This document shows, in pieces, positions 1 to 25,295 of a DNA stretch of 25,764 bases. Source of the stretch: Gloeobacterales cyanobacterium (GTDB lineage: Bacteria > Cyanobacteriota > Cyanobacteriia > Gloeobacterales > PMM-0068). The stretch covers positions 1 to 25,764 of the forward strand of contig JBBRSB010000042.1 in NCBI GenBank assembly GCA_038245785.1, given 5' to 3'. Below the pieces are notes generated by a model that ran no database searches, had not been told where the DNA came from, and saw only the letters and a list, made by a program, of their open reading frames with translations. Within the stretch, counting starts at the first letter, position 1. Every line of letters starts with the position of its first letter. The position numbers and the translations under genes were made by a program.

Positions 1-2682
1 AGATTCGCTTTCCGTGGGCTCAACCATCATCGTGCCTGCTACCGGCCAAGAAACCGTGGGGGCATGAAAGCCATAATCCATGAGGCGTTTGGCAATATCA
101 TCGACTTCAATCCCGGCACTGATTTTGAGCTGGCGCAAATCTAGGATGCATTCATGGGCAACTAAACCCTGTTTGCCTTTGTAGAGAATCGGATAGTGAG
201 GCTCCAGGCGATGGGCTATGTAATTGGCATTGAGAATAGCTACTTTGGTCGCTTCGGTCAATCCTTCTGCACCCATCAGCGCGATGTACGTCCAGCAGAT
301 GGGCAGAAGACTGGAACTACCCCAGGGAGCAGCCGAAACAGCCCCAATGCCCTGGATTCCCCCCGTTTTAACTACAGGATGTTTTGGCAAAAAGGGAACT
401 AAATGTGGTGCGACCCCAATCGGCCCGATGCCAGGACCACCGCCACCGTGGGGAAGACTGAAGGTTTTGTGCAAATTTAAATGGCAAACGTCTGCTCCCA
501 TATCTCCTGGACGGCATAGGCCAACCTGGGCATTCATGTTGGCTCCATCCATATAGACTTGTCCACCATGGGCATGAATAATTTCGCAGAGGTCTGTGAT
601 CGATTCCTCAAACACACCATGAGTTGAAGGATAGGTCACCATCATGGCAGCCAGTTCCTTACTATGCGCTTCGGCTTTTGCCTTCAGGTCAGCCACATCG
701 ATATTGCCTTGGGCATCACAAGCAACGGGGACTACCCGGAATCCAGCCATGACCGCACTGGCAGGGTTGGTCCCATGGGCAGAGGTGGGAATCAAACAAA
801 TATTGCGATGACTTTCTTGGCGATGTTGGTGATAAGCCCGAATCACGAGCAGGCCCGTATATTCTCCTTGTGAACCAGCATTCGGTTGCAAAGACATACC
901 TGCAAATCCTGTGATTTCAGCGAGTTGCTCTTCTAGTTGCTGGAAGAGAATTTGGTATCCCCTGGCTTGTTCTATGGGGGCGAAGGGGTGAATCTTGCCA
1001 AATTCTGGCCAGGTGACAGGCATCATCTCTGTGGTCGCACTCAGCTTCATCGTGCAAGAGCCCAGCGGAATCATCGAAGTAGTTAATGACAAATCCTTGG
1101 TCTGCAGGCGATACATGTACCGGAGCAATTCGGTTTCCGAGTGATAGCTGTTGAAAACGGGATGGGTGAGGTAGGGACTGGTACGCGCAAACTTTTGCTT
1201 TATAACTTCAGAAGCTATGAGAGATTCTAGAGTGAAATCTACAGGCTGACCGCCATTGAAAACGGTTAAAAGGTCTTCTAAGTCCTTCTCTGAGGTGGTT
1301 TCATCCAGACTGATGCCCAGAGTTTTTTCATCGAATATCCGCAGATTGATACGCTGCTCGGCAGCGGCTTCCAAGATCTTCTTGGCCTTGTCTGCAGAAA
1401 GATTGAGCTGCAAAGTATCAAAAAATGGCTCTGAGCTAACTTCATATCCTAGTCGTTTCAGACCTGCTGCTAAGGTCGCTGTTGCCCGATGGACTCGTTG
1501 AGCAATTTTTTTAAGCCCCTGAGGACCGTGATATACCGCATACATGCTGGCCATCATTGCCAACAAAGCCGCAGTAGTACAGATGTTGCTGGTCGCCTGA
1601 TCTCGGCGGATGTGCTGCTCCCGTGTCTGTAGCGCTAAACGCAGGGCAGGCTTGCCATGCACATCATGAGATACACCAACGATACGCCCTGGAATATGTC
1701 GTTTGTACGATTCTCTGGTCGCAAAATAGGCTGCGTGAGGACCGCCATAACCTAGGGGCGCTCCAAAACGTTGGCTATTCCCTACGGCGATATCTGCTCC
1801 AAACTCGCCTGGCGGCTTAAGCAGCGTCAGACTCAACAGATCTGCCGCAACTGTTACTAAGGCTCCTGCCTGATGAGCATGGTCTACAAAAGCTTGGTAA
1901 TCATAAATGGCCCCATTGGTTCCTGGATATTGCAGCAGAGCTCCGAAAATCGGTTGGTCAAAATCAAAGGTTTCATGATTGCCCACCAAGACTTCAATCC
2001 CGAGGGCCGTAGCACGGGTCGTTACGACCTCAATCGTCTGGGGATGACAGGCTTCGGAGATGAAAAACGTCTTTTTTTCCTGTCCCGCTATGGTCTTGGC
2101 CTGCAGACCATAGCTCATGGTCATCGCTTCGGCAGCAGCGGTGGCTTCATCGAGTAGGGAAGCATTGGCAATTTCTAAACCCGTCAGATCCATAACCATC
2201 GTTTGGAAATTGAGGAGGGCCTCCAGTCTGCCTTGAGCGATTTCCGCTTGGTAGGGGGTGTACTGGGTATACCAGCTCGGATTTTCTAGGATATTCCGCT
2301 GAATGACGGTGGGGGTGATGCAGTCGGAGTAACCCATGCCGATGAAGGAGCGAAAAATTTGATTTTTGGAAGCTAAGGACTTCAGCTCGCTGAGCACCTC
2401 GTATTCGCTACGGTTTTTTCCCAGTTTGAGAGGCCGTTCTAGGCGGATGTGCGCGGGGACCGTTTTCTGGATCAGGTCCTCTAGAGAAGCGAAGCCCATG
2501 CTTGAAAGCATGTCCTGAATGGCGGCAGGACTGGGACCAATATGCCGCCGAGCGAAAGAATCAGTGCTAGCGAGTGTATCTTCCGGGTACTTCAGAACAA
2601 GCTTTAGCCCGTTTCTATAGAGATATTTGTTTGACGGTTTTTTTGTGAATACGGAGGCATTTTTTATGGTTTCTGGGGTCAC
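1..2682 (-). CDS. gcvP: Glycine dehydrogenase (aminomethyl-transferring), glycine cleavage P protein; 3' end runs off the window
   Basis: Manual minus-strand translation from GTG at 2682 (AAGGAAG upstream) gives MTPETIK...[17 protein letters not shown], the PLP-lysine motif [20 protein letters not shown] and EPTESES at the window edge. It is absent from the ORF track because the stop lies outside the window. Confidence 0.97.
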
Positions 2683-2692
2683 AGGGCTTCCT

Positions 2693-2710
2693 TATGTAAG
2701 GCAATGTAAA
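2693..2710 (-). promoter_or_regulatory. HLR1-like direct repeat (candidate RpaB site)
   Basis: Minus strand reads TTTACATT-GC-CTTACATA, one mismatch to (G/T)TTACA(T/A)(T/A)-N2-(G/T)TTACA(T/A)(T/A). It lies immediately upstream of the gcvP RBS. Confidence 0.55.
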
Positions 2711-2870
2711 GTTTACCGTATTAAAGTACTGTTATTACTAAGTACAACAATGTGCTTAAGAATACTTTCAGCAACCCGTCAAATGTGCTTAATCGCCTGT
2801 TGATATAAATGATTTATATTCCAAGTATTAGCCACAGAAGAATCTATAAAGCATCTGGAAGGTCTTTTTA

Positions 2871-5800
2871 TTACAATGCAGCAACCTGAAGTTTTGCACC
2901 CCACCGTTCCAGGATAGTTTGCAGGTCTTGCATCTTTATCGGTTTGCTTACGTAGTCATCCATGCCTATCTGCAAGCACGCTTCACGGTCTCCTTGCATC
3001 GCATTGGCCGTCATGGCAATGATCCAGGGCCGTGGATAGTCATGTACCGCAGACCATTTTTGGTGAATAGCCTGTGTAGTCTGGAACCCATCCATTTCAG
3101 GCATCTGGACATCCATGAATATCAGGTCATAGGTTTTATGCCTCAGGGCTTCGAGCACTTCTAGGCCATTGTTGGCGATGTCTGCGCGGTATCCCATCTT
3201 CTTTAGCGTTTGTAGAGCTACCTTCTGGTTTACCAAATTGTCTTCGGCCAACAAAATTCGTAGAGGTAGTCGCTCTCCTAAGGTGGGCGTGGCCTCGGCT
3301 TGGACAACTACAGGGACAGGCTGCGCAGGAGTCTCAGAAGCTTCTTGAAAAATGCTTTCCAGGGCTTTGAGGAGTTGAGCTGCTTTGACCGGTTTACTTA
3401 ATATTGAGGCAAACTCTGCCCAGGCTGGTTCGGATTGCTCTCTGGATTCTAGATCCGCACGCTGGCCGATGGAAGAGAGCATGACCAGTGGAAAATGCTC
3501 ATATTTTTGTACTTTGCGTATCTTCTTGGCCAACATTAACCCGTCCATATCCGGCATTTGCATATCCAGAATGGCGAGATCGAAGGCATCTCCTCGGCGA
3601 ATCCATTGCAGCGCTTCAGGACCAGAGGCTGCCGAAAAAGGGATCATGCCCCAGGTTTGGGCCTGGAGGGTCAGGATGCGGCGGTTGGTTTCGTTGTCAT
3701 CTACGATCAATAGACGCTTCTTCAGCAATTTGGGTGAGGTGCGGCTGAGGCGTCCCGGTAATTGGCCAGAAGTCGCCATAGCGGTGATCGTGAAGTGAAA
3801 GGCCGAACCTTTACCGACTTCACTTTGGACCCACATTGTGCCTCCCATGAGATGACAGAGCCGTTTGCTAATAGCTAGGCCTAAACCAGTCCCGCCATAT
3901 CTTCTGGTTGTTGAAGCATCCACTTGGCTGAATGATTGGAAGAGTCGGTCCATCCGCTCTTGGGGGATGCCGATACCTGTATCCTGAATAATAAACTGGA
4001 CTTCATATTTAGAAGCGGGGAGAGGACCATTGCTTAGGTGTTTGTCTCCTTGTCCCGAGCTATCTTCCGAGCTGTCCACAAGACGGCTTGACACCTGGAC
4101 TACCACTTCTCCCAATTGGGTAAATTTGACAGCATTGCTGAGCAAATTCAATAGAATTTGGCGAATCCTGGTAACGTCACCCATGAGCATTGTCGGGACT
4201 TGTGGATCGATGAAATAGGCAAGATCTAGCCCTTTATCAGTTGCCTGTGTCACTAAAAGATCTAGGGCTTCTTCGACGCAGTTTCTCAAATTGAAGGGCT
4301 CTTCTTCCAAATCCAGCTTGCCCGCTTCGATTTTTGAGAAGTCCAAAATTTCGTTAACAATCGTGAGCAAAGCATCACTGCTATTACGGATTGTTCTGGT
4401 GAATTCTAATTGCTCTGAAGTCAGTTCTGTATCGAGGAGGAGTTGCGTCATGCCAATGATGCCATTCATCGGAGTCCGGATCTCATGGCTCATGTTGGCT
4501 AAGAACTGCCCTTTAGCTTGATTGGCGGCTTCTCCGGCCTCTCGGGCAATCAGGAGTTCTTCTCGCGCATTGCCAAGCCCCACGGCTGCACGGCCAATTT
4601 CTTGCTGCAACGTATTGAAACTCGCCGCCATCTCCCCTAGTTCATCTCGGGAATTGATTCTCACGGGTACTACGTCGATTCGGGCATAGGCTGCACCAAT
4701 GTCTCCGGCCCCAAGTGCTTGCATCGCCCGCGAGAAATCGGCCAGGGTTCCTGTTGAAAGCCGATTTGCCGCTTGAGAGACTTCTACTGCAGAGTGAGCG
4801 ATCATTCCCGGTAATACTAATCCGACCGTAATCGTTAGTATCGCCACTGCGACAAAGATGTCTTCGAGAATGACGGTTAAAGCTGTCTGCTGCACAGCTG
4901 CGTTTTGGACGGCCAGTAAATATCCTGCTCCATCTAGGGCTAATACCAAGAGCATGGCCCCGGTCAATTTAATATGCAGGCTACGGGCTATGCCCGGTAA
5001 GCCCTGACGCTTACGGTCAGAATATTTGCGCCAGGCATACAGCGCCGAACCGGAGTAGGCAAAGGCTAATCCCACCATGACCGTGGGTAGACCGAACTGT
5101 TGAAATCCCAGGACGGCTGAAGTTCCCCAAACGGATGAGGCTACCAGTCCCGCCATGATCATTCCACGGGGCGCACGATAGGGGCGCATCATCTCAGGAG
5201 CATCACGACGGAGTAGCCAAACCGCGACATTGGGCAAACAGATACCAATCAAATAGGTAAAGTTGGCCGCCGCAATCAACCAAACGGGGTCCCCAAGCAG
5301 TAAGAAGAAAATCGCCATACCCGCTGTAAGGAGTGTGGCGACCCAAGGAGCATCTGTGCGCGACCGGAGGGCTAGAAATTCTGGAAGCAAACCATCTTCC
5401 GCTAGCTGTGCCAAGGTGCGCGAGGCCCCAGCCAAAGGCTGCAGGGTTCCATGAAACATGTTCAACATCATGAATCCAATGGCACAAGCTTTTGCACCAC
5501 TGCCAAAAAGAGGAGCAAAGGTTGGGCCCAATACCAGGGCAAGGTCTTTCCCAAGAGGTTCTGGGCCAAGCACTCCCAACCAGATGATCGGGAGCAAAAC
5601 AAAGTAAACAGCGGCCATCAAGCCACTGGCTAACATTGCTCGCGGTACATTTTTATTGGGGTCGATCGTTTCTCCCACATGGCAGGAAGCAGCTTCAAAA
5701 GCTGGGGCCGCAAAACCAATCAAATAAAGTCCTGCCATCAGACTCGTCAGTTCTCCAAACCATCCAGGGAAGGGGACGGTGAGCTGAAAAGTGGTAGCTT

Positions 5801-6377
5801 GCTGCCAATCGACATGGCCCGTAAGTACGGGAATCAAACCGGACAGAAAAGCCAGTAGAGCAGACCCACTCGCGATCGGAATCACCAAACGCGTGACCCA
5901 TTGCACTCCACACAAATTCACAAAGGTGAAGAAAAGCACCAACCCACAAGCCGTAACCTGAAAAGGTACATCTGGCAGATACCATTGATGGATAGCGGAG
6001 GCCGATAAAATGGCGGTCAAGCCACAGGTTGGAATCCAGCCCCACCAGTAACAAACGCCTGTGAGGTTTGCTAGCACTGGACTATAGGGACGAAAAGCTT
6101 CAGCGCAGGTGGCGGCAATTCCGCCGACCCGATTGGGATACATCAAAATTAGTTCGGTCCAGCCTGGTGCTGCCGCCCAACTTAACAGAAGTCCAAGGAT
6201 GAGCAGGGGAATTGCTGCACTCCCTTGCCCAGGGATTGCTCCTTGACCGATAAATAGAGCAGATAAGAGGAAAAGACTCTGGTTACTACCGCCCATGGCA
6301 AGGGCTGTTGTTCCGATCCATCCGATTGTTCGTGGATGGGCAAGAGAAGCTGGCTTAGGGATAGACGTACTAGTCAT
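2871..6377 (-). CDS. APC-family amino acid permease fused to HAMP, hybrid sensor histidine kinase and two receiver domains
   Basis: The N-terminal ~460 aa form a multi-TM domain with the APC-like FEAASCHVGETIDPNKNVPRA and SRTLAQLAEDGLLP motifs. Two more TMs, a HAMP (SRDELGEMAASFN), the H-box FLANMSHEIRTPMNG, N/G boxes (NLLSNAVKFT, DTGIGI, GGTGLGL) and two REC domains (DMQMPDMDG; DVQMPEMDG) follow. The start is taken at the MTSTSIP ATG; the ORF extends to 6413. Confidence 0.93.
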   Translation of the reverse strand: MTSTSIPKPASLAHPRTIGWIGTTALAMGGSNQSLFLLSALFIGQGAIPGQGSAAIPLLILGLLLSWAAAPGWTELILMYPNRVGGIAATCAEAFRPYSPVLANLTGVCYWWGWIPTCGLTAILSASAIHQWYLPDVPFQVTACGLVLFFTFVNLCGVQWVTRLVIPIASGSALLAFLSGLIPVLTGHVDWQQATTFQLTVPFPGWFGELTSLMAGLYLIGFAAPAFEAASCHVGETIDPNKNVPRAMLASGLMAAVYFVLLPIIWLGVLGPEPLGKDLALVLGPTFAPLFGSGAKACAIGFMMLNMFHGTLQPLAGASRTLAQLAEDGLLPEFLALRSRTDAPWVATLLTAGMAIFFLLLGDPVWLIAAANFTYLIGICLPNVAVWLLRRDAPEMMRPYRAPRGMIMAGLVASSVWGTSAVLGFQQFGLPTVMVGLAFAYSGSALYAWRKYSDRKRQGLPGIARSLHIKLTGAMLLVLALDGAGYLLAVQNAAVQQTALTVILEDIFVAVAILTITVGLVLPGMIAHSAVEVSQAANRLSTGTLADFSRAMQALGAGDIGAAYARIDVVPVRINSRDELGEMAASFNTLQQEIGRAAVGLGNAREELLIAREAGEAANQAKGQFLANMSHEIRTPMNGIIGMTQLLLDTELTSEQLEFTRTIRNSSDALLTIVNEILDFSKIEAGKLDLEEEPFNLRNCVEEALDLLVTQATDKGLDLAYFIDPQVPTMLMGDVTRIRQILLNLLSNAVKFTQLGEVVVQVSSRLVDSSEDSSGQGDKHLSNGPLPASKYEVQFIIQDTGIGIPQERMDRLFQSFSQVDASTTRRYGGTGLGLAISKRLCHLMGGTMWVQSEVGKGSAFHFTITAMATSGQLPGRLSRTSPKLLKKRLLIVDDNETNRRILTLQAQTWGMIPFSAASGPEALQWIRRGDAFDLAILDMQMPDMDGLMLAKKIRKVQKYEHFPLVMLSSIGQRADLESREQSEPAWAEFASILSKPVKAAQLLKALESIFQEASETPAQPVPVVVQAEATPTLGERLPLRILLAEDNLVNQKVALQTLKKMGYRADIANNGLEVLEALRHKTYDLIFMDVQMPEMDGFQTTQAIHQKWSAVHDYPRPWIIAMTANAMQGDREACLQIGMDDYVSKPIKMQDLQTILERWGAKLQVAAL

Positions 6378-6498
6378 AATTACTGAGTATTCCCTGGCGT
6401 CACAAGCGATCATGAGAAAGTCAGTAAATCCTCATCCAGAATTTATAAATGATTAAATGATTAACTTTAGACAAAACCCCGGAGAGCGACAAAGCCCA

Positions 6499-8185: not shown

Positions 8186-8887
8186 ATGGAGAAAATAGCC
8201 GTTGTAACCGGAGCTAACCGGGGAATGGGGTTCGAAGTTTCCAGGCAGCTAGCAAAAGTAGACATGCAGGTGATTCTCACCAGTCGAGACCCTGAAAAAG
8301 GTCAAAAAGCAGCGGAGCAATTGCAGCTAGAAGGCTTCGATGCTATTTACTATCCTTTAGATGTTGCTAATGCTGAAAGTATTGAGGTTTTTAGCCAATT
8401 TGTCCGTCATAAATTTGGTCGTGTGGATGTACTTATCAATAACGCTGGTTTAATGATCGACGCACCAGAAATCAGTGTCTTTGATGCCAAGGTTGACACC
8501 CTGCGCAAAACGATGGAAGCCAATGTCTACGGACCTTTCCAGTTAATCCAGGCACTGGTTCCTTTGATGAAAGAGCATCACTACGGGCGGATTGTAAATG
8601 TGTCTTCTGGCATGGGTCAATTGACCGATATGGGGGGAGGCTATCCTGGCTACCGACTTTCTAAAGTTTCCCTCAATGCCTTAACGCGAATATTCGCTAA
8701 CGAACTAGAAGGCACCAATATTCTGGTGAATACGATGTGTCCTGGTTGGGTCAAAACTGATATGGGCGGACCCGGTGCAACCCGTACCCCTGAAGAGGGC
8801 GTAGACACGATGGTCTGGCTTGCAACTTTAGCGGATGGTGGTCCCACGGGTGGATTTTTCCGTGACCGCCAGCCCATTCCTTGGTGA
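8186..8887 (+). CDS. Short-chain dehydrogenase/reductase (carbonyl-reductase-like)
   Basis: TGANRGMG, NNAG, catalytic YRLSK and CPGWVKTDMGG are present; the RBS is AAGGAG. Confidence 0.93.
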   Translation: MEKIAVVTGANRGMGFEVSRQLAKVDMQVILTSRDPEKGQKAAEQLQLEGFDAIYYPLDVANAESIEVFSQFVRHKFGRVDVLINNAGLMIDAPEISVFDAKVDTLRKTMEANVYGPFQLIQALVPLMKEHHYGRIVNVSSGMGQLTDMGGGYPGYRLSKVSLNALTRIFANELEGTNILVNTMCPGWVKTDMGGPGATRTPEEGVDTMVWLATLADGGPTGGFFRDRQPIPW

Positions 8888-8907
8888 CTCCTTGGAGGAA
8901 GTCTGAA

Positions 8908-10653
8908 ATGGTGACGAAAATAGATTCCTATGTGCAGGTTGCCCAATTGGCGGAGGTGCAGACAGCAGGCTGTTTAGTTGTCCCTATTGCTGGACATACG
9001 CTGGTGCTTTTCAGCCAGGGCAAGCAAGTCCATGTTCTGGATAATCGCTGTCCTCATATGGGTTTTCCGCTGCATCGAGGCAGCGTCAAAGACGGGATTC
9101 TTACCTGTCACTGGCACCATGCCCGTTTTGACCTGGCCAGCGGGGGCACTTTTGATTCCTGGGCGGATGATATTCCTGCCTTCCCTGTACAAATCCGGGA
9201 CGGAGAAGTTTGGGTGGACTTGGCATCCCAGTTTGACCTCCAGACCCATCAGCGCCAGCGTTTACAGGATGGCTTACAGCAGAGTATTTCTTTGGTGATT
9301 GCCAAAGCAGTTATTGCTTTACTAGACGGAGGGACACCCCCCACAGAACCTTTCCGCATTGGGCTCGATTTTGGGACGCGCTATCGACAAAAAGGTTGGG
9401 GCGCTGGGTTAACTATGCATACCTGCCTGATGCAATTGTTACCTTATCTAGAGAAACAGGAGCGTGCGCGTGCGCTGTATCACGGTCTTGCCGCCGTAGC
9501 CCGCGACTGCGCTAGTTCATCTCCTCATTTTGGCGTTCATCCACTTCCTGCTTCAAATTTAGATGTGGATACACTCAAACGCTGGTTTCGCCAGTTCATC
9601 GAAGTCCGAGATGCGGAAGGAGCAGAGCGTTGCTTAGTATCCGCTGTCCAGTCTGGTGCTAACGCTAAGCAAATCGCCGACATGCTATTCGCGGCGGCTA
9701 CGGATCACCGATTTATCGACGGTGGCCATGCTCTAGACTTTACCAATAAAGCCTTGGAAGCGCTGGATGTGACGGGTTGGGAGCTTGCTGAACCCGTGTT
9801 GGGTAGTTTAGTCTCTGGTTATGCCAGTGCCGAGCGAATGGAGGAATCCAATGCTTGGCGTAATCCCATAGATCTAGTAGCCTTGCTCGAACGTGCCTTC
9901 GCCGTGTTGCCCGATGCTTTGGCAGAAGGTCAGAGTCGACGTGGAACTTGGTCAGGCCAGGCGCAATTGGTCCCTGTCCTCTTGGGGGAAAACCCACAGG
10001 CCATTGTCGATACGCTGCTTGCTAACCTTCGCGCCGGTTGCTGCGAGGAAGAATTAGCTGGAACTGTCACCTATGCGGCAGCGCTGCGGATTGCCCAATT
10101 TCATACCAGCAATGAATTAAGCGATTGGGACGCAGTCCATCACACCTTCACCTTCGCTAATGCTGTCCACCAAGGACTCTGCCGGGTGGCATCACCAGAA
10201 TTACTGCGCGGTGTCTTCGATGCGGCCATGCGCGTCTACCTAAATCGCTTCCTGAATTTGCCCGCCGCTCGCCTGCCAGAAGCATCTAGCCCAGCCACAA
10301 ATCCTGAGCAGTTATTGGATGAATTACCGAATCTACTGGATCGACAGCAGCAAGTAAATGAAGCAGGCACTCTAGTTGCCCGTTATCTATACAGCAAGGG
10401 CGATCCAGACCAATTGTTAGCCATCTTAGGCCGTTTGTTACTGCGGGAAGACCGCAGTTTCCACACAATCCAGATGATGGAAGCCGCTTTTCGCCAGTAC
10501 GCCGCCTTACGAGGAACGGATGCAGGAGTTCATATACTAGTTGCGGCTGCACGCTTTTTAGCAGCTCATGCACCGACCATGCGCGCTCAAGGGCAGACGT
10601 ATCAGATGGCTCAAAGACTGCATCGGGGCGATCATCTGTTTGAAGAGTCTTGA
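8908..10653 (+). CDS. Rieske [2Fe-2S] domain protein with a large uncharacterised helical C-terminal region
   Basis: Rieske ligands CPHMG...CHWHH fall in the first ~110 aa. GGAGG at 8894 precedes ATG 8908. The gene starts 20 nt after the SDR stop. Confidence 0.88.
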   Translation: MVTKIDSYVQVAQLAEVQTAGCLVVPIAGHTLVLFSQGKQVHVLDNRCPHMGFPLHRGSVKDGILTCHWHHARFDLASGGTFDSWADDIPAFPVQIRDGEVWVDLASQFDLQTHQRQRLQDGLQQSISLVIAKAVIALLDGGTPPTEPFRIGLDFGTRYRQKGWGAGLTMHTCLMQLLPYLEKQERARALYHGLAAVARDCASSSPHFGVHPLPASNLDVDTLKRWFRQFIEVRDAEGAERCLVSAVQSGANAKQIADMLFAAATDHRFIDGGHALDFTNKALEALDVTGWELAEPVLGSLVSGYASAERMEESNAWRNPIDLVALLERAFAVLPDALAEGQSRRGTWSGQAQLVPVLLGENPQAIVDTLLANLRAGCCEEELAGTVTYAAALRIAQFHTSNELSDWDAVHHTFTFANAVHQGLCRVASPELLRGVFDAAMRVYLNRFLNLPAARLPEASSPATNPEQLLDELPNLLDRQQQVNEAGTLVARYLYSKGDPDQLLAILGRLLLREDRSFHTIQMMEAAFRQYAALRGTDAGVHILVAAARFLAAHAPTMRAQGQTYQMAQRLHRGDHLFEES

Positions 10654-21584: not shown

Positions 21585-21829
21585 TCTATTTGACCTGCGA
21601 ACTTACCATCGACTTCGGGACGAATATTTTCATAAGAAGCTTTAAGCCTATGGGTAATCTGTTCAAGATTGTCTACTTGGTAAATGGGCAGTGGGGCTTT
21701 ACCTTTGACATAACTGGCTAGCAGTACCATGGATCCTGTTGTTGAGAGTTGAATTCCTGCTACTCAAGTCCCATAAGTATGAACTTTCCAGACCAATTCT
21801 CCTAGGAGTATCGACTTTTCCTCAGGCAT
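21578..21829 (-). pseudogene. Remnant of a VOC/glyoxalase-like gene with an in-frame stop
   Basis: The frame reads MPEEKSILLGELVWKVHTYGT*VAGIQLSTTGSMVLLASYVKGKAPLPIYQVDNLEQITHRLKA..., with an internal TGA at 21766-21764. The final stop lies inside the repeat element. Confidence 0.5.
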
Positions 21830-22520
21830 CTGGAAGGAGCGTTAGTCCTTCTCTTTCTTTCTGCTTATTAGCGGTTCGAAGCTGCACATGCACTTCACTT
21901 GCAGATATGCCAATCTGTTGTTCAACTACGTTACGAATACTGGTTTGGATTTGCTCTCCCATATCCTTTATTGATTGACCGATGGATGGATTGACTTCGG
22001 CTACTCCATAGACAATTAGCCCCTGTTCACGCTGCTCTAAGCGAGGCTGAAAGCTTTCAACATTAGCCATTTGTACAACAGCTTGCTGAATAAATTCTTC
22101 GGCAACCTCTTCGGGAATCTCAATTTCTCCACCCGCATCAGACTTGATAATCAGTGTAGAGTTTGCTTTAGGAGCTTTGGGAATATGGATTTCCCTACTC
22201 ATATCGGACACGAGCATCAGGGAAGAACTTTCTTTAGGGGCTTTTGATATCAGTTGCCCTATTTCCAAGAGCAACCATACGAATCCCACAGAAGCGATAC
22301 CGATTCCAATCCCCCCTGCAGCAAGCGGGTCTGCCTCGAACCAGGCATAGAGCTCCTTCAAAAACATTTGGGGAGATTGCAGTACTATTCCCCCACGCCG
22401 CAGTAGAGCATTAGCCGTTGAATAAGAAATCTGGTTGAACACTCCAGCGACAATCCCGCTTCCTAGAAGAATCAAGAGGAAAGAGAGCGAAGTACTGATG
22501 ATTAAGTTGAAGATGCGCAT
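21822..22520 (-). CDS. Membrane protein resembling AmaP, with a C-terminal Asp23/Gls24-like domain
   Basis: Two N-terminal TM helices are followed by GEIEIPEEVAEEFIQQA...IQTSIRNVVEQQIGISASEVHVQL. ATG 22520 is preceded by a perfect TATAAT at 22551-22546; the ORF extends to 22583. Confidence 0.7.
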   Translation of the reverse strand: MRIFNLIISTSLSFLLILLGSGIVAGVFNQISYSTANALLRRGGIVLQSPQMFLKELYAWFEADPLAAGGIGIGIASVGFVWLLLEIGQLISKAPKESSSLMLVSDMSREIHIPKAPKANSTLIIKSDAGGEIEIPEEVAEEFIQQAVVQMANVESFQPRLEQREQGLIVYGVAEVNPSIGQSIKDMGEQIQTSIRNVVEQQIGISASEVHVQLRTANKQKEREGLTLLPDA

Positions 22521-22639
22521 AGCTATACCTGAAGCAGGCACCTCTATTATAAATATAGAGAATGAGGAAGAGCACTTCTCCATTCTCTATGTTAAGAGCA
22601 TTGAGAAGTTATGAGATCGGGGATTTAACGGGCAAGTGC

Positions 22640-23268: not shown

Positions 23269-23784
23269 TCACGCGAACTTTGTCAGTTCTACTCTTTCAT
23301 GCTGAAGTAGCCATTGTTTGCGCTCTAGACCACCTGCATAACCAGTCAGCTTGGCATTCGCACCGATTACCCGATGACAGGGCAACACGATTGCAACAGG
23401 ATTGAGGGAGTTTGCCATGCCGACGGCACGATACGCTGTCGGTCTTCCAATGGTCTCGGCCAAAGCTCCATAGGTCACAGCTGTTCCTGGCGGAATGGAG
23501 CGTAGTGCTAGCCAAACCTTCTGCTGAAAGGGAGTTCCACCGGTATGTACAGGGATGTGATCCAAGCTGTTGAAATCGCCTGCCAGATAGGCGCGTAGAA
23601 GGTCGCTAAATCCTTGAGGATTGGACTTCTCGATGAAGTAAATCGTCCCGTAGCGTTTCTCCAACAGCTTGATCATGCGAGACTCATACTCTGTAAAGTC
23701 AAGCGCACAGAGCTTTTCACCATCTGAAACAATTAGGATCTTTCCCATCGCGCTATCAATTTTGTCGATCAGAAGCTCAGTCAT
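23269..23784 (-). CDS. ogt: Methylated-DNA--[protein]-cysteine S-methyltransferase
   Basis: GTPFQQKVW, RAVG, active-site PCHRV and LTGYAGGLERK are present; ATGA overlap with the upstream gene. Confidence 0.96.
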   Translation of the reverse strand: MTELLIDKIDSAMGKILIVSDGEKLCALDFTEYESRMIKLLEKRYGTIYFIEKSNPQGFSDLLRAYLAGDFNSLDHIPVHTGGTPFQQKVWLALRSIPPGTAVTYGALAETIGRPTAYRAVGMANSLNPVAIVLPCHRVIGANAKLTGYAGGLERKQWLLQHERVELTKFA

Positions 23785-25295
23785 GCGGATAACATCTCCT
23801 TATGTGGCAATAGCGTTGAATCGGGCAAATCTAGGGAGGACCATAAATGCATGGCGGCATAGGCCCTCCATGGTCTCCAAGCTTGGGAACGTTCAAGAAG
23901 CTGTGCTTTGGTTACAGGATGTCCCAGAGATTCCATCGCTCTTAGCAAACCCAAATCAGCCGCAGGAAAGGCATCGGGTTCGCGTAGCGCCCGCATAGCG
24001 ATATAGTTGGCCGTCCATTCTCCAATTCCAGGCAACTGACAGAGGGTTTGAATGGCCTCATCCATAGTCTGAAAGTGGGTCAAAAGTTGAGGATTGCGAG
24101 CAACAGCTGCCGCCAAGGCCGTAATGGCGCTCGCTCTGTTTCGGGGTATTCCAAGGGATGTTAAATCAGCATCGGACAGAACTTCTGGACGGGGAAATAC
24201 AAACTGTATGCCCGTTCCTGTCCAGGGGGTAACTGCTAGCAGAGGCTCTCCATAGGTTCTTACCAGACGACCTGCCAGCGTTGTAGCCGCCGCAACACTG
24301 ACCTGTTGGCCCAAAATTGCCCGTACTGCTAATTCGAAAGGGTCCCAAGCACCCGGAATTCTCAACCCTGGTTGCAGGGCAATGATCTTGGCAAGGATTG
24401 GATCCCGTTGGAGTTGGGCAGAGATTTCGGCAACGTTTGCATTCAGATCGAACATACGCTGCAGTCGCTCCACGATTTGTGCCAGTAGCGTTACTTTAGG
24501 GAAGTAAATCTTGGCCATGAGATAGTTCTGTCCGGCAACAGGACAGATTTCAACGATACCGTGATGTCCATTCAGGGCGATGGCCCGTAGATAACGCTCA
24601 AGGTTTCCGGATTCCAGTCCTGGCGTCGCTCTAGGAAGGAGAAAGCGAATGAAAGCAGACCAACTAAAAGGTGGATTGAAGGGCAATTTTAAGGAGATGG
24701 TTGGGACACAAGGGGCATCTATTGGTTGAATTGTCTGACGCCGCAGGTCACGGGGCGATCGCTTATAGGTCTTGTAGATTACGTCATTAAAGCGACGAAT
24801 ACTTGCAAACCCAGCAGCCATGGCGACATCGGTCATAGACAGCGACGTTTCATCAATCAGCTTCTTGGCAAAGAGGAGCCGTCGTGTTTGTGCTACTGCT
24901 ATGGGTGAGGTGCCAAGGTGTTTAGCGAACAGCTGCCGCAAGTGGCGATCGCTCACACCTAATCGCGTTGCTAGGCCTCCAACCGCACCCTCATCCAACG
25001 CTCCAGCAGCAATTAAAGAAAGAGCACGAGACACAGTAGAGGTTGTCCCAACTTGGGCAAATGAGCTAGGAGCTAGCTCAGGTCTACAGCGCAAACAGGG
25101 ACGAAATCCTGCACTCTGTGCTGCCGCCGCATTCAAGAAAAATGTGCAGTTCTCTCGCTTAGGAGTGATCGCGGGACAAATGGGCCGACAGTAAATTCCT
25201 GTGGTGCAGACGGCGACAAAAAACTGTCCGTCAAAGCGAGCATCCTTGGTTTGCATCGCTCGGTAACAAACATCAGGGTCAAGATTTGGGCTCAT
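23781..25295 (-). CDS. alkA: Ada Zn-binding/AraC regulator fused to AlkA DNA-3-methyladenine glycosylase II
   Basis: TGIYCRPIC...FRPCLRCRP (Ada-N), an AraC-type HTH, an AlkA N-domain, RAILGQQVS, HhH-GPD LPGIGEWTA...DAFPAADLG and WRPWRAYA are present. Confidence 0.95.
   Translation of the reverse strand: MSPNLDPDVCYRAMQTKDARFDGQFFVAVCTTGIYCRPICPAITPKRENCTFFLNAAAAQSAGFRPCLRCRPELAPSSFAQVGTTSTVSRALSLIAAGALDEGAVGGLATRLGVSDRHLRQLFAKHLGTSPIAVAQTRRLLFAKKLIDETSLSMTDVAMAAGFASIRRFNDVIYKTYKRSPRDLRRQTIQPIDAPCVPTISLKLPFNPPFSWSAFIRFLLPRATPGLESGNLERYLRAIALNGHHGIVEICPVAGQNYLMAKIYFPKVTLLAQIVERLQRMFDLNANVAEISAQLQRDPILAKIIALQPGLRIPGAWDPFELAVRAILGQQVSVAAATTLAGRLVRTYGEPLLAVTPWTGTGIQFVFPRPEVLSDADLTSLGIPRNRASAITALAAAVARNPQLLTHFQTMDEAIQTLCQLPGIGEWTANYIAMRALREPDAFPAADLGLLRAMESLGHPVTKAQLLERSQAWRPWRAYAAMHLWSSLDLPDSTLLPHKEMLSA

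Follow-up and report, generated by a model that had tools for sequence, protein, structure and literature searches.

A 25,764-nucleotide stretch from a Gloeobacterales cyanobacterium (assembly GCA_038245785.1, contig JBBRSB010000042.1; the whole stretch is hereafter the window) contains a gene that joins an amino acid permease-like membrane part to a hybrid histidine kinase and lies directly upstream of gcvP, the gene for glycine dehydrogenase P protein. The question raised by this locus is whether the protein is a transporter-sensor (transceptor) for glycine or serine with a role in photorespiration, as proposed in a preliminary description of the sequence, or a sensor unrelated to its neighbor. 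We consider it probable that the protein is intact and belongs to a large family of transporter-derived sensors, old and conserved to an unusual degree, whose input module has 14 transmembrane segments (TMs), and that gcvP is incidental; the transporter-sensor part of the proposal found support, the glycine/serine and photorespiration part did not.

Gene and domain architecture

Positions 2871-6413 of the minus strand formed a single open frame of 1180 codons with no internal stops, whereas a plus-strand reading of 2871-6377 was rejected because of stops throughout. The open reading frame (ORF) previously placed at 2871..6377 was thus real, but it is on the minus strand and its longest form reaches 6413: position 6377 corresponds to Met13 (MTSTS), and the longest ORF begins 36 nt further upstream. 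Since residues 1-25 showed no conservation among homologues, either start (6413 or 6377) is possible.

A Pfam scan of the 1180-residue protein gave seven families at E<=0.01. AA_permease_2 (PF13520) matched residues 30-424 with 111.5 bits against a cut-off of 27, and AA_permease (PF00324) scored 62.3 bits against 24.6; these were followed by HAMP (554-606), HisKA (633-698), HATPase_c (745-876) and Response_reg in two stretches. Together with the 1180 open codons, these matches confirmed the fusion of a permease-like domain, HAMP, HisKA, HATPase and two receivers in one uninterrupted ORF. PAS, GAF, Hpt (PF01627), SSF, STAC and Ammonium_transp were all absent from the protein at the same threshold, in agreement with the earlier statement on PAS, GAF and Hpt, and the permease-like domain was the sole recognisable input, as had been supposed. 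The hybrid-kinase motifs read from the sequence were complete: SHEIRTP (with His643), LLSNAVKFT, DTGIGI and GGTGLGL in the kinase part, DD905-906, D950 and K1010 in the first receiver, and E1057/D1058, D1101 and K1160 in the second. By these motifs, the protein can be classed as a hybrid sensor histidine kinase, and its scores for the BarA, TorS and ArcB equivalogs were all below their cut-offs. Elsewhere in the genome, Hpt gave six matches, one within a 135-codon open frame. The best cluster in the ESM Atlas ("Amino acid permease/HAMP domain-containing protein", score 0.90) added no function. The features are listed in Table 1.

Table 1. Features of the permease-fused kinase gene and the adjacent gcvP region (aa, amino acid residues of the 1180-residue protein).
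Feature	Position	Strand	Basis
Whole ORF: APC-like module, 2 TM, HAMP, HisKA, HATPase_c, receiver, receiver; 1180 codons + stop	2871..6413	-	ORF + Pfam
12-TM APC/LeuT-fold permease-like core, aa 26-470	5004..6338	-	Pfam AA_permease_2 + AA_permease, AlphaFold2 model, Foldseek
TM1 break motif GGSNQSLF, aa 41-48	6270..6293	-	G41, G42, N44, Q45, F48 invariant in 69 sequences; helix break at 44-45
TM3 aromatic motif CYWWGW, aa 121-126	6036..6053	-	Invariant in family
TM6 motif AAPAFE, aa 235-240	5694..5711	-	Alignment to SYSGWD of y+LAT2
Extra TM13-TM14 hairpin, aa 479-540	4794..4979	-	6-residue outer loop; conserved together with module
HAMP domain, aa 541-609	4587..4793	-	Pfam; first helix predicted continuous with TM14
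HisKA/DHp, aa 633-698, H-box SHEIRTP with His643	4320..4517	-	Pfam + motif
HATPase_c catalytic domain, aa 745-876; N, G1, G2 boxes	3786..4181	-	Pfam + motifs
Receiver 1, about aa 903-1020; DD pair, Asp950, Lys1010	3354..3707	-	Boundaries read from sequence
Receiver 2, aa 1053-1168; ED pair, Asp1101, Lys1160	2910..3257	-	Pfam + motifs
AT-rich 188-bp spacer to gcvP	2683..2870	-	No Rfam family, terminator-like or promoter-like site called inside
gcvP (glycine dehydrogenase P protein), runs off window; judged outside system	1..2682	-	Pfam

A family of permease-fused signalling proteins

A search with residues 1-560 returned 1874 proteins at E<=0.001 among 8000 scored candidates, and the 120 best matches were 73-98% identical over 95-100% of the query, with varied C-terminal domains. 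In a scan of one genome per species, 116 relatives were found; the 80 loci kept were 66-79% identical over the 14-TM module and derived mostly from soil and freshwater metagenome-assembled genomes of Verrucomicrobiota, Alpha-, Beta- and Gammaproteobacteria (Pseudomonadota), Armatimonadota, Actinomycetota, Chloroflexota, Dormibacterota, Acidobacteriota and Planctomycetota. The 14-TM module reached at least nine phyla. Gene-level counts refer to 76 of the 80 loci (antisense ORFs were picked in the high-GC loci L010, L067 and L072, and L077 was missed), and in these 76 recovered genes the C-terminal extension was lacking only where a contig end cut the gene. The survey of output domains suggested for this permease clade gave, by Pfam tally, a histidine kinase in 44 of 73 C-terminal parts (HisKA or HisKA_2, with or without PAS, one or two receivers, Hpt) and GGDEF in 26 (23 GGDEF-EAL and 3 GGDEF-HD); three were left without a class, two of them cut by contig ends and one (L055) with HAMP only. 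HAMP was detected in 62 of the 73.

Among 1.84 billion representatives at 50% identity, 1416 matched at E<=0.001 and 227 at E<=1e-30. Distant relatives (31-53% identity) were 800-1265 residues long, carried HATPase, HisKA, GGDEF-EAL/HD or HAMP in 15 of the 19 scanned, and retained the TM1 GG(S/A)N and the Pro-containing, PAFE-like TM6 motifs. Short matches were many, mostly labelled "partial" or located on short contigs; three short representatives were checked (P0314, P0277 and P0309), only the first of which gave a judgement, being garbled in TM2-TM3. The whole clade looks dedicated to signalling.

We define the APC-2TM-HAMP family here by at least 65% identity over the 14-TM module, the invariant motifs GG-x-NQ (TM1), CYWWGW (TM3) and P-A-F-E (TM6), and a HAMP domain followed by a signalling output. 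The window protein belongs to this family, with 64-77% identity to 68 members, HAMP and a hybrid kinase output; the motif columns were invariant in all 69 sequences, window included. No description of an APC-fused kinase or cyclase was found in a full-text literature search, outside the coverage of which most subscription journals fell, nor by term look-up in the accessible text of PMC11109136, PMC13022988, PMC12421884 and PMC8846402 (0 occurrences), consistent with the earlier remark that no APC-HAMP-hybrid kinase has been characterised. In the accessible part of PMC12421884, a Caulobacter protein termed an "amino acid permease", CCNA_01242, figures as a transporter of glutamine.

Several individual loci deserve mention. 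Hosts of family copies include Glaciimonas immobilis DSM 23240 (L051), Mesorhizobium (L013) and Actinoplanes (L072). An H-NOX (HNOB) gene lay directly downstream of one family member (L048:9636-10145 (+)), and SpoIIE/PP2C phosphatase genes lay upstream of two others (L025:4999-5799 (-) and L045:4222-5607 (-), the latter receiver-fused); single-domain receivers stood beside the members at L025, L026, L073 and L078. In three actinomycetotal loci (L029, L031 and L033), the APC-GGDEF-EAL gene was immediately preceded by a PAS-GGDEF-EAL-HATPase ORF of about 880-917 residues, and long N-terminal extensions were present in the permease ORFs; in L031, the two ORFs overlapped, and a larger fusion or a frameshift is possible.

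Conservation and evolutionary age

The alignment of 69 modules had a mean column identity of 73%, with long invariant runs that include N44, Q45, E87, R95, C121-Y-W-W-G-W126, P128-T-C-G-L-T133, F234 and P237-A-F-E240, and conservation peaked in TM1-TM3 (identity of 0.80-0.90 in blocks of 30 residues). Synonymous sites were saturated in 68/68 comparisons with the window (proportion of synonymous differences, 0.78-0.87), the median proportion of nonsynonymous differences in the same comparisons was 0.197, and GC content at third codon positions spanned 0.47-0.96, matching each host. The saturation excludes a recent spread, and these comparisons indicate that the family is old and under strong purifying selection. 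A quick maximum-likelihood tree tracked the phyla with 9 label changes (minimum 7; shuffled mean 32.8), and at least six switches between kinase and GGDEF outputs are needed on the module tree (66 labelled rows).

A region-by-region comparison of one set of 36 kinase-type proteins with the window protein gave median identities of 74.6% in the 14-TM module, 62.7% in HAMP and 47.8% in the DHp and catalytic core. The sensor domain is usually the part of a histidine kinase that evolves fastest; this pattern is inverted where the membrane sensor has changed less than the kinase, and the difference between 74.6% and 47.8% points to a single, strongly constrained signal in many soil and freshwater bacteria. 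The window sequence grouped with Pseudomonadota (SH-aLRT 91, not starred), which fits acquisition by transfer, and the gene in this phototroph is probably a rare, horizontally acquired accessory sensor.

Fold and putative binding site

The AlphaFold2 model of residues 1-610, built from 69 aligned sequences, had a mean predicted local distance difference test (pLDDT) of 85.4 and a predicted template-modelling score of 0.84. Foldseek gave 270 matches at E<=0.001, the best of which in PDB were y+LAT1, SLC7A10, LAT1, BasC and AdiC (E about 5e-12), and TM-scores to the target were 0.72-0.80 with AdiC, LAT1, BasC and y+LAT1; the N-terminal region was thus modelled confidently as an APC/LeuT fold, contrary to the first outcome that had been named as refuting the proposal. 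The model breaks TM1 at N44-Q45. Beyond TM12, helices 479-503 and 510-554 are separated by six residues, in line with the earlier impression of two extra TMs with almost no extracytoplasmic loop, and the second is predicted to enter the first HAMP helix without a break. A two-copy homodimer prediction for residues 470-610 (TM13-TM14-HAMP) scored 0.02 against a mark of 0.42. The 14-TM module consists of a 12-TM APC/LeuT core, distantly related to SLC7/LAT proteins, and the TM13-14 hairpin, with HAMP following.

The best NCBIfam model was the trimethylamine N-oxide (TMAO) permease (NF053774; 134.4 bits, far under the 690-bit cut-off), followed by a generic amino-acid transporter (75 bits), LAT (62 bits) and ethanolamine permease (54 bits), and the glycine/D-serine transporter model scored 27 bits. 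On these scores, the module belongs to no curated permease equivalog, and TMAO permeases are the closest kin of the core among named families. A true orthologue of the TMAO permease TmoP (889.7 bits) was present in a Mesorhizobium genome (G041) that also holds a copy of the sensor family, and was 27-28% identical to the module. This orthologue is located at L090:1495-3303 (-), flanked (by eye) by a GcvT-like aminomethyltransferase ORF (3456-4625) and a flavin-monooxygenase-like ORF (72-1421), and the family member in the same genome is a GGDEF-EAL protein (L013).

When the family profile was compared with PDB sequences, only TM4-TM12 aligned, and TM1-TM3 found no sequence alignment to solved APC transporters. 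The canonical APC substrate-site motifs (AdiC/ApcT/LAT) are G-(S/T/A)-G-(I/V)-F in TM1 and (F/Y)-x-G-x-E in TM6; solved APC transporters bind the carboxylate of the substrate through the G-x-G backbone of TM1 and its amino group through the break in TM6. The two strings quoted in the preliminary description, GGSNQSLF at residues 41-48 and AAPAFE at residues 235-240, were found at these places, and the departure of both from the usual motifs was borne out: neither GGSNQSLF in TM1 nor FAAPAFE in TM6 fits the canonical pattern, and FAAPAFE aligns over FSYSGWD of y+LAT2, with Pro for Ser and Ala for the flexible Gly. Because the carboxylate and amino motifs are altered, TM3 is aromatic and the closest named kin is TmoP, a small or quaternary amine appears somewhat more likely as a ligand than a standard alpha-amino acid.

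Proposed mechanism and alternative explanations

In the mechanism that we propose, the protein would be a receptor kinase gated by a solute. A small solute would enter a central pocket formed by the TM1 break (N44/Q45), the aromatic TM3 (Y122, W123, W124 and W126), TM6 (F234, P237, F239 and E240) and TM8. With Ks-Amt5/Sd-Amt1 and CbrA as models, the equilibrium of the rocking bundle may be supposed to shift on occupancy or in the course of the transport cycle, and this shift would pass through TM12 and the TM13-14 hairpin into TM14, whose predicted continuity with HAMP may serve to carry it. HAMP would then set the activity of the DHp and catalytic domains and hence autophosphorylation on His643, the motifs for which are in the sequence. 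The phosphoryl group may be transferred to Asp950 and/or Asp1101 and from there, because the protein has no Hpt of its own, to a separate Hpt protein and a response regulator from elsewhere in the genome.

Several points weigh against this account of an intact family sensor that stands beside gcvP by accident. Sensing, ligand, transport and kinase control are all inferred for the family, and the pocket residues were assigned by TM position and knowledge of solved APC proteins, not from the coordinates of the model. The amine-ligand idea draws only on a relative of 27-28% identity and on the reading of motifs. The canonical APC cytoplasmic-loop motifs are kept (PNRVGG; SRTLAQLAEDGLLP), and the module may therefore still transport, as a true transceptor and not a pure receptor. 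The grouping with Pseudomonadota is unstarred and comes from a quick tree with long-branch warnings elsewhere. On the side of the neighboring gene, three other studies hold contigs of 90-95% similarity that bridge gcvP, the spacer and the 3' end of the kinase gene (X2 record 17, X3 record 25 and X10 record 1), and no terminator-like site was called in the spacer by the promoter/terminator scan.

It is possible, if doubtful, that the protein is a working transporter first, the APC core carrying a substrate while the kinase reports flux as proposed for CbrA. This would suit the retained loop motifs, to which a KNxPR-type signature after TM6 can be added, and the strong constraint on the whole 12-TM core, not the pocket only; histidine is transported by CbrA according to the accessible part of PMC13022988. 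Nevertheless, fusion to an output extends to relatives with as little as about 31% identity, with no evident free transporter among them, the few short relatives seen are cut or garbled (e.g. P0314), and Pro and Ala occupy the TM6 positions where transporters have a flexible Gly. Moreover, Ks-Amt5 keeps all Amt motifs yet does not translocate, as stated in the accessible text of PMC11152129.

The opposite extreme, which we regard as rather unlikely in this full form, is a dedicated receptor of the Ks-Amt5 kind, without net transport, that senses one ubiquitous soil and freshwater solute and feeds phosphorelays and cyclic di-GMP (c-di-GMP) turnover in at least nine phyla; the solute would then possibly be a methylated or quaternary amine held at the invariant TM3 aromatics and the TM1 Asn-Gln. 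If true, the module would be among the most conserved membrane sensor domains known and represent a new major class of chemoreceptor input.

It is quite unlikely that the module reports the state of the membrane (proton-motive force, pH, ions such as K+, or lipid) and not a solute. Such a role would explain the conservation of nearly every residue, lipid-facing ones included, which is extreme and uniform across all helices, as well as the lack of a link to any metabolic gene neighborhood, and the APC fold does include ion carriers (KimA, KCC and NKCC were among the Foldseek matches). On the other hand, TM1-TM3 and the TM6 motif, which belong to the substrate-site helices of the fold, are the most conserved, and the closest named relative carries an organic solute.

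Position beside gcvP

The gene downstream on the same strand was gcvP (GDC-P, 653.5 bits in Pfam), and the co-orientation and the 188-bp distance given earlier were exact. It is nevertheless highly improbable that the protein is a transceptor for glycine, serine or a related amine that controls gcvP and photorespiratory glycine metabolism. This explanation draws on the arrangement itself, on its occurrence in the bridging contigs, on the spacer with no called terminator-like site, and on an amino-acid-permease-type input in a host that five Photo_RC matches mark as an oxygenic phototroph. However, gcvP was found by tblastn at none of the 80 homologous loci (full 6-kb flanks on both sides in 42), so that the proposed survey of gcvP synteny gave no recurrence. 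Clustering of all ORFs at the 80 loci revealed no recurrent neighbor family (the best non-self cluster occurred in 6 loci of close relatives), and no metabolic neighbor recurred either in this clustering or in a Pfam scan of the 120 immediately flanking ORFs, 18 of which were signalling genes (single receivers, hybrid kinases, receiver-PP2C and one H-NOX), with the rest having no theme.

The module was also not found in 40 relatives (2 of the same genus, 11 of the same order and 27 of the same class; E<=1e-20) or, at E<=1e-50, in a further 400 genomes from 156 genera of the phylum, and therefore is not a general part of cyanobacterial photorespiration; its identity of about 75% to copies in non-phototrophic phyla argues for one shared ligand unrelated to this process. 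Within the protein, the altered alpha-carboxylate and alpha-amino motifs of TM1 and TM6 and the low score of the glycine/D-serine model (27 bits, compared with 134 for the TMAO permease) point away from glycine, and a hybrid kinase with no Hpt or DNA-binding output cannot act directly on gcvP.

Close relatives indicated how the two genes came together. At the syntenic position in a same-genus genome (G002), divergent from an FtsJ/S4 methyltransferase gene, there is a 500-codon gene for HisKA, HATPase and a partial receiver (L087:8371-9873 (-), contig C200). It was 55-58% identical to residues ~550-1026, compared with 48% for the closest paralogue in the window's own genome; it opens with a family-specific HAMP relic, the frame upstream is full of stops, and pdxJ, not gcvP, lies downstream. 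An orthologous soluble kinase was considered and rejected because of the HAMP remnant at the start and the upstream stops. The gene seems to be a copy of the permease-fused kinase gene that has lost its 5' part and is decaying. A second same-genus genome (G001) had no kinase at the syntenic place. The genus ancestor thus had the gene, which in relatives has been lost or is decaying and which came to lie beside gcvP in the lineage of the window alone.

The adjacency to gcvP is real and stable for a narrow lineage, and no wider, and looks incidental. An Rfam scan for a riboswitch or other RNA gave no match at the gathering score of any family, whether in the spacer or elsewhere in the window. 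The promoter/terminator scan called fewer sites overall than in shuffled sequences and left the spacer empty, and was uninformative in this respect; with no terminator-like call in the spacer, read-through and co-transcription of gcvP in this lineage are possible, but would then be accidental and local and no part of the family's design. The neighboring gcvP gives no basis for annotating the gene as a glycine or photorespiration regulator.

Integrity of the junction

A contig from another study (X3 record 28) covers 4465-5222, from TM11/12 through TM13-14 and HAMP into HisKA and the H-box, 1180-residue proteins of identical length occur on other contigs, and the same fused layout recurs in related loci; the search for a misassembly at the junction therefore found none. 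An assembly chimera or a decaying pseudogene, which the 255-contig assembly of this genome and the truncated relic that alone occurs in a same-genus genome might suggest, is already refuted by these independent contigs, the recurring architecture, the 1180 stop-free codons and the intact catalytic motifs.

Summed contig depth in the bin 4374-4514 (H-box/DHp) jumped to 3826 in metagenome run X10 and 587 in X12, and many loose contig ends lay at 4447-4499 in the metagenome runs. The jump presumably stems from unrelated organisms whose conserved kinase cores match here at 90% likeness, and not from copies of the gene.

Relationship with known transporters and transporter-derived sensors

TmoP (Methylocella type, NF053774) shares with the module a YPN(K/R)xGG loop, the TM3 pattern C-x-W-[FW]-x-W-x-P and an SRTL..DG.LP loop, but it is a stand-alone transporter whose TM6 has the canonical YGFE and whose TM3 is followed by an additional insert, and it lacks TM13-14, HAMP and an output, in keeping with the low identity and sub-threshold score given above. 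SLC7-type proteins (LAT1, y+LAT1/2, xCT, BasC, AdiC and GkApcT) were the best structural matches and the best PDB sequence matches over TM4-TM12, whereas their identity to the module was 15-22%, TM1-TM3 did not align in sequence, and their TM1 G(S/T/A)G and TM6 Gly are replaced in the module; they are transporters with no signalling domains. In co-sensing of the LysP-CadC type, an APC permease that is a normal lysine transporter perceives the signal with a separate regulator. The use of an APC permease for signal perception is common to both; however, LysP and CadC are two separate proteins, while the permease-like module of the window protein is covalently fused to its output.

Transceptors are known from few cases, the Amt receptors and the SLC5-STAC kinases. 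In the accessible text of PMC5764959 and PMC11152129, Sd-Amt1 is described as an Amt-fold receptor coupled through HAMP to GGDEF; in that of PMC11152129, Ks-Amt5, fused to a histidine kinase, is described as keeping the transporter motifs and binding without translocating. As in these proteins, a signalling enzyme has taken over an entire transporter fold for its membrane input, and HAMP is the link in both the window protein and, as far as described there, Sd-Amt1. The Amt proteins differ in their fold, with 11 TMs and a trimeric assembly; the window protein has no Ammonium_transp, Foldseek gave APC and not Amt, and the APC-2TM-HAMP family has two extra TMs before HAMP and many more phyla and outputs. 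CbrA and CrbS (MxtR) are SLC5-STAC-PAS histidine kinases according to the accessible parts of PMC13022988 and PMC5715377, and likewise have a LeuT-fold secondary transporter fused N-terminally to a histidine kinase, which in CrbS is also of the hybrid type. Their transporter is SLC5/SSS and the coupling element STAC, whereas the window protein has an APC core, TM13-14 and HAMP, and neither SSF nor STAC. Judged by its domains, the protein appears to act like the Amt receptors and CbrA/CrbS, yet it lacks those that define either group.

The APC-2TM-HAMP family, which is apparently unstudied, adds a third transporter fold to the transporter-derived sensors and is far more widespread, with kinase and c-di-GMP outputs across at least nine phyla. 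An identified ligand would give an input to thousands of orphan signalling proteins, and the family offers a clean system for how a rocking-bundle transporter drives a HAMP domain. It represents a large, testable gap in bacterial signal transduction, in which the window copy is an accessory gene.

Other genes in the window

Three further regions of the window were noted. In the 590-codon ORF at 8881-10653 (+), a Rieske [2Fe-2S] domain is confined to the first ~112 residues, Pfam gave nothing for the other ~480, and the TTG start overlaps the end of a short-chain dehydrogenase gene at 8186-8887. The 253-codon ORF at 21822-22583 (-) matched no Pfam family at E<=0.001. An adaptive-response pair occupies 23269-25295 (-), in which the gene for an Ada_Zn_binding-HTH_AraC-AlkA_N-HhH-GPD fusion (504 residues) overlaps by 4 nt that for a 6-O-methylguanine DNA methyltransferase (171 residues).

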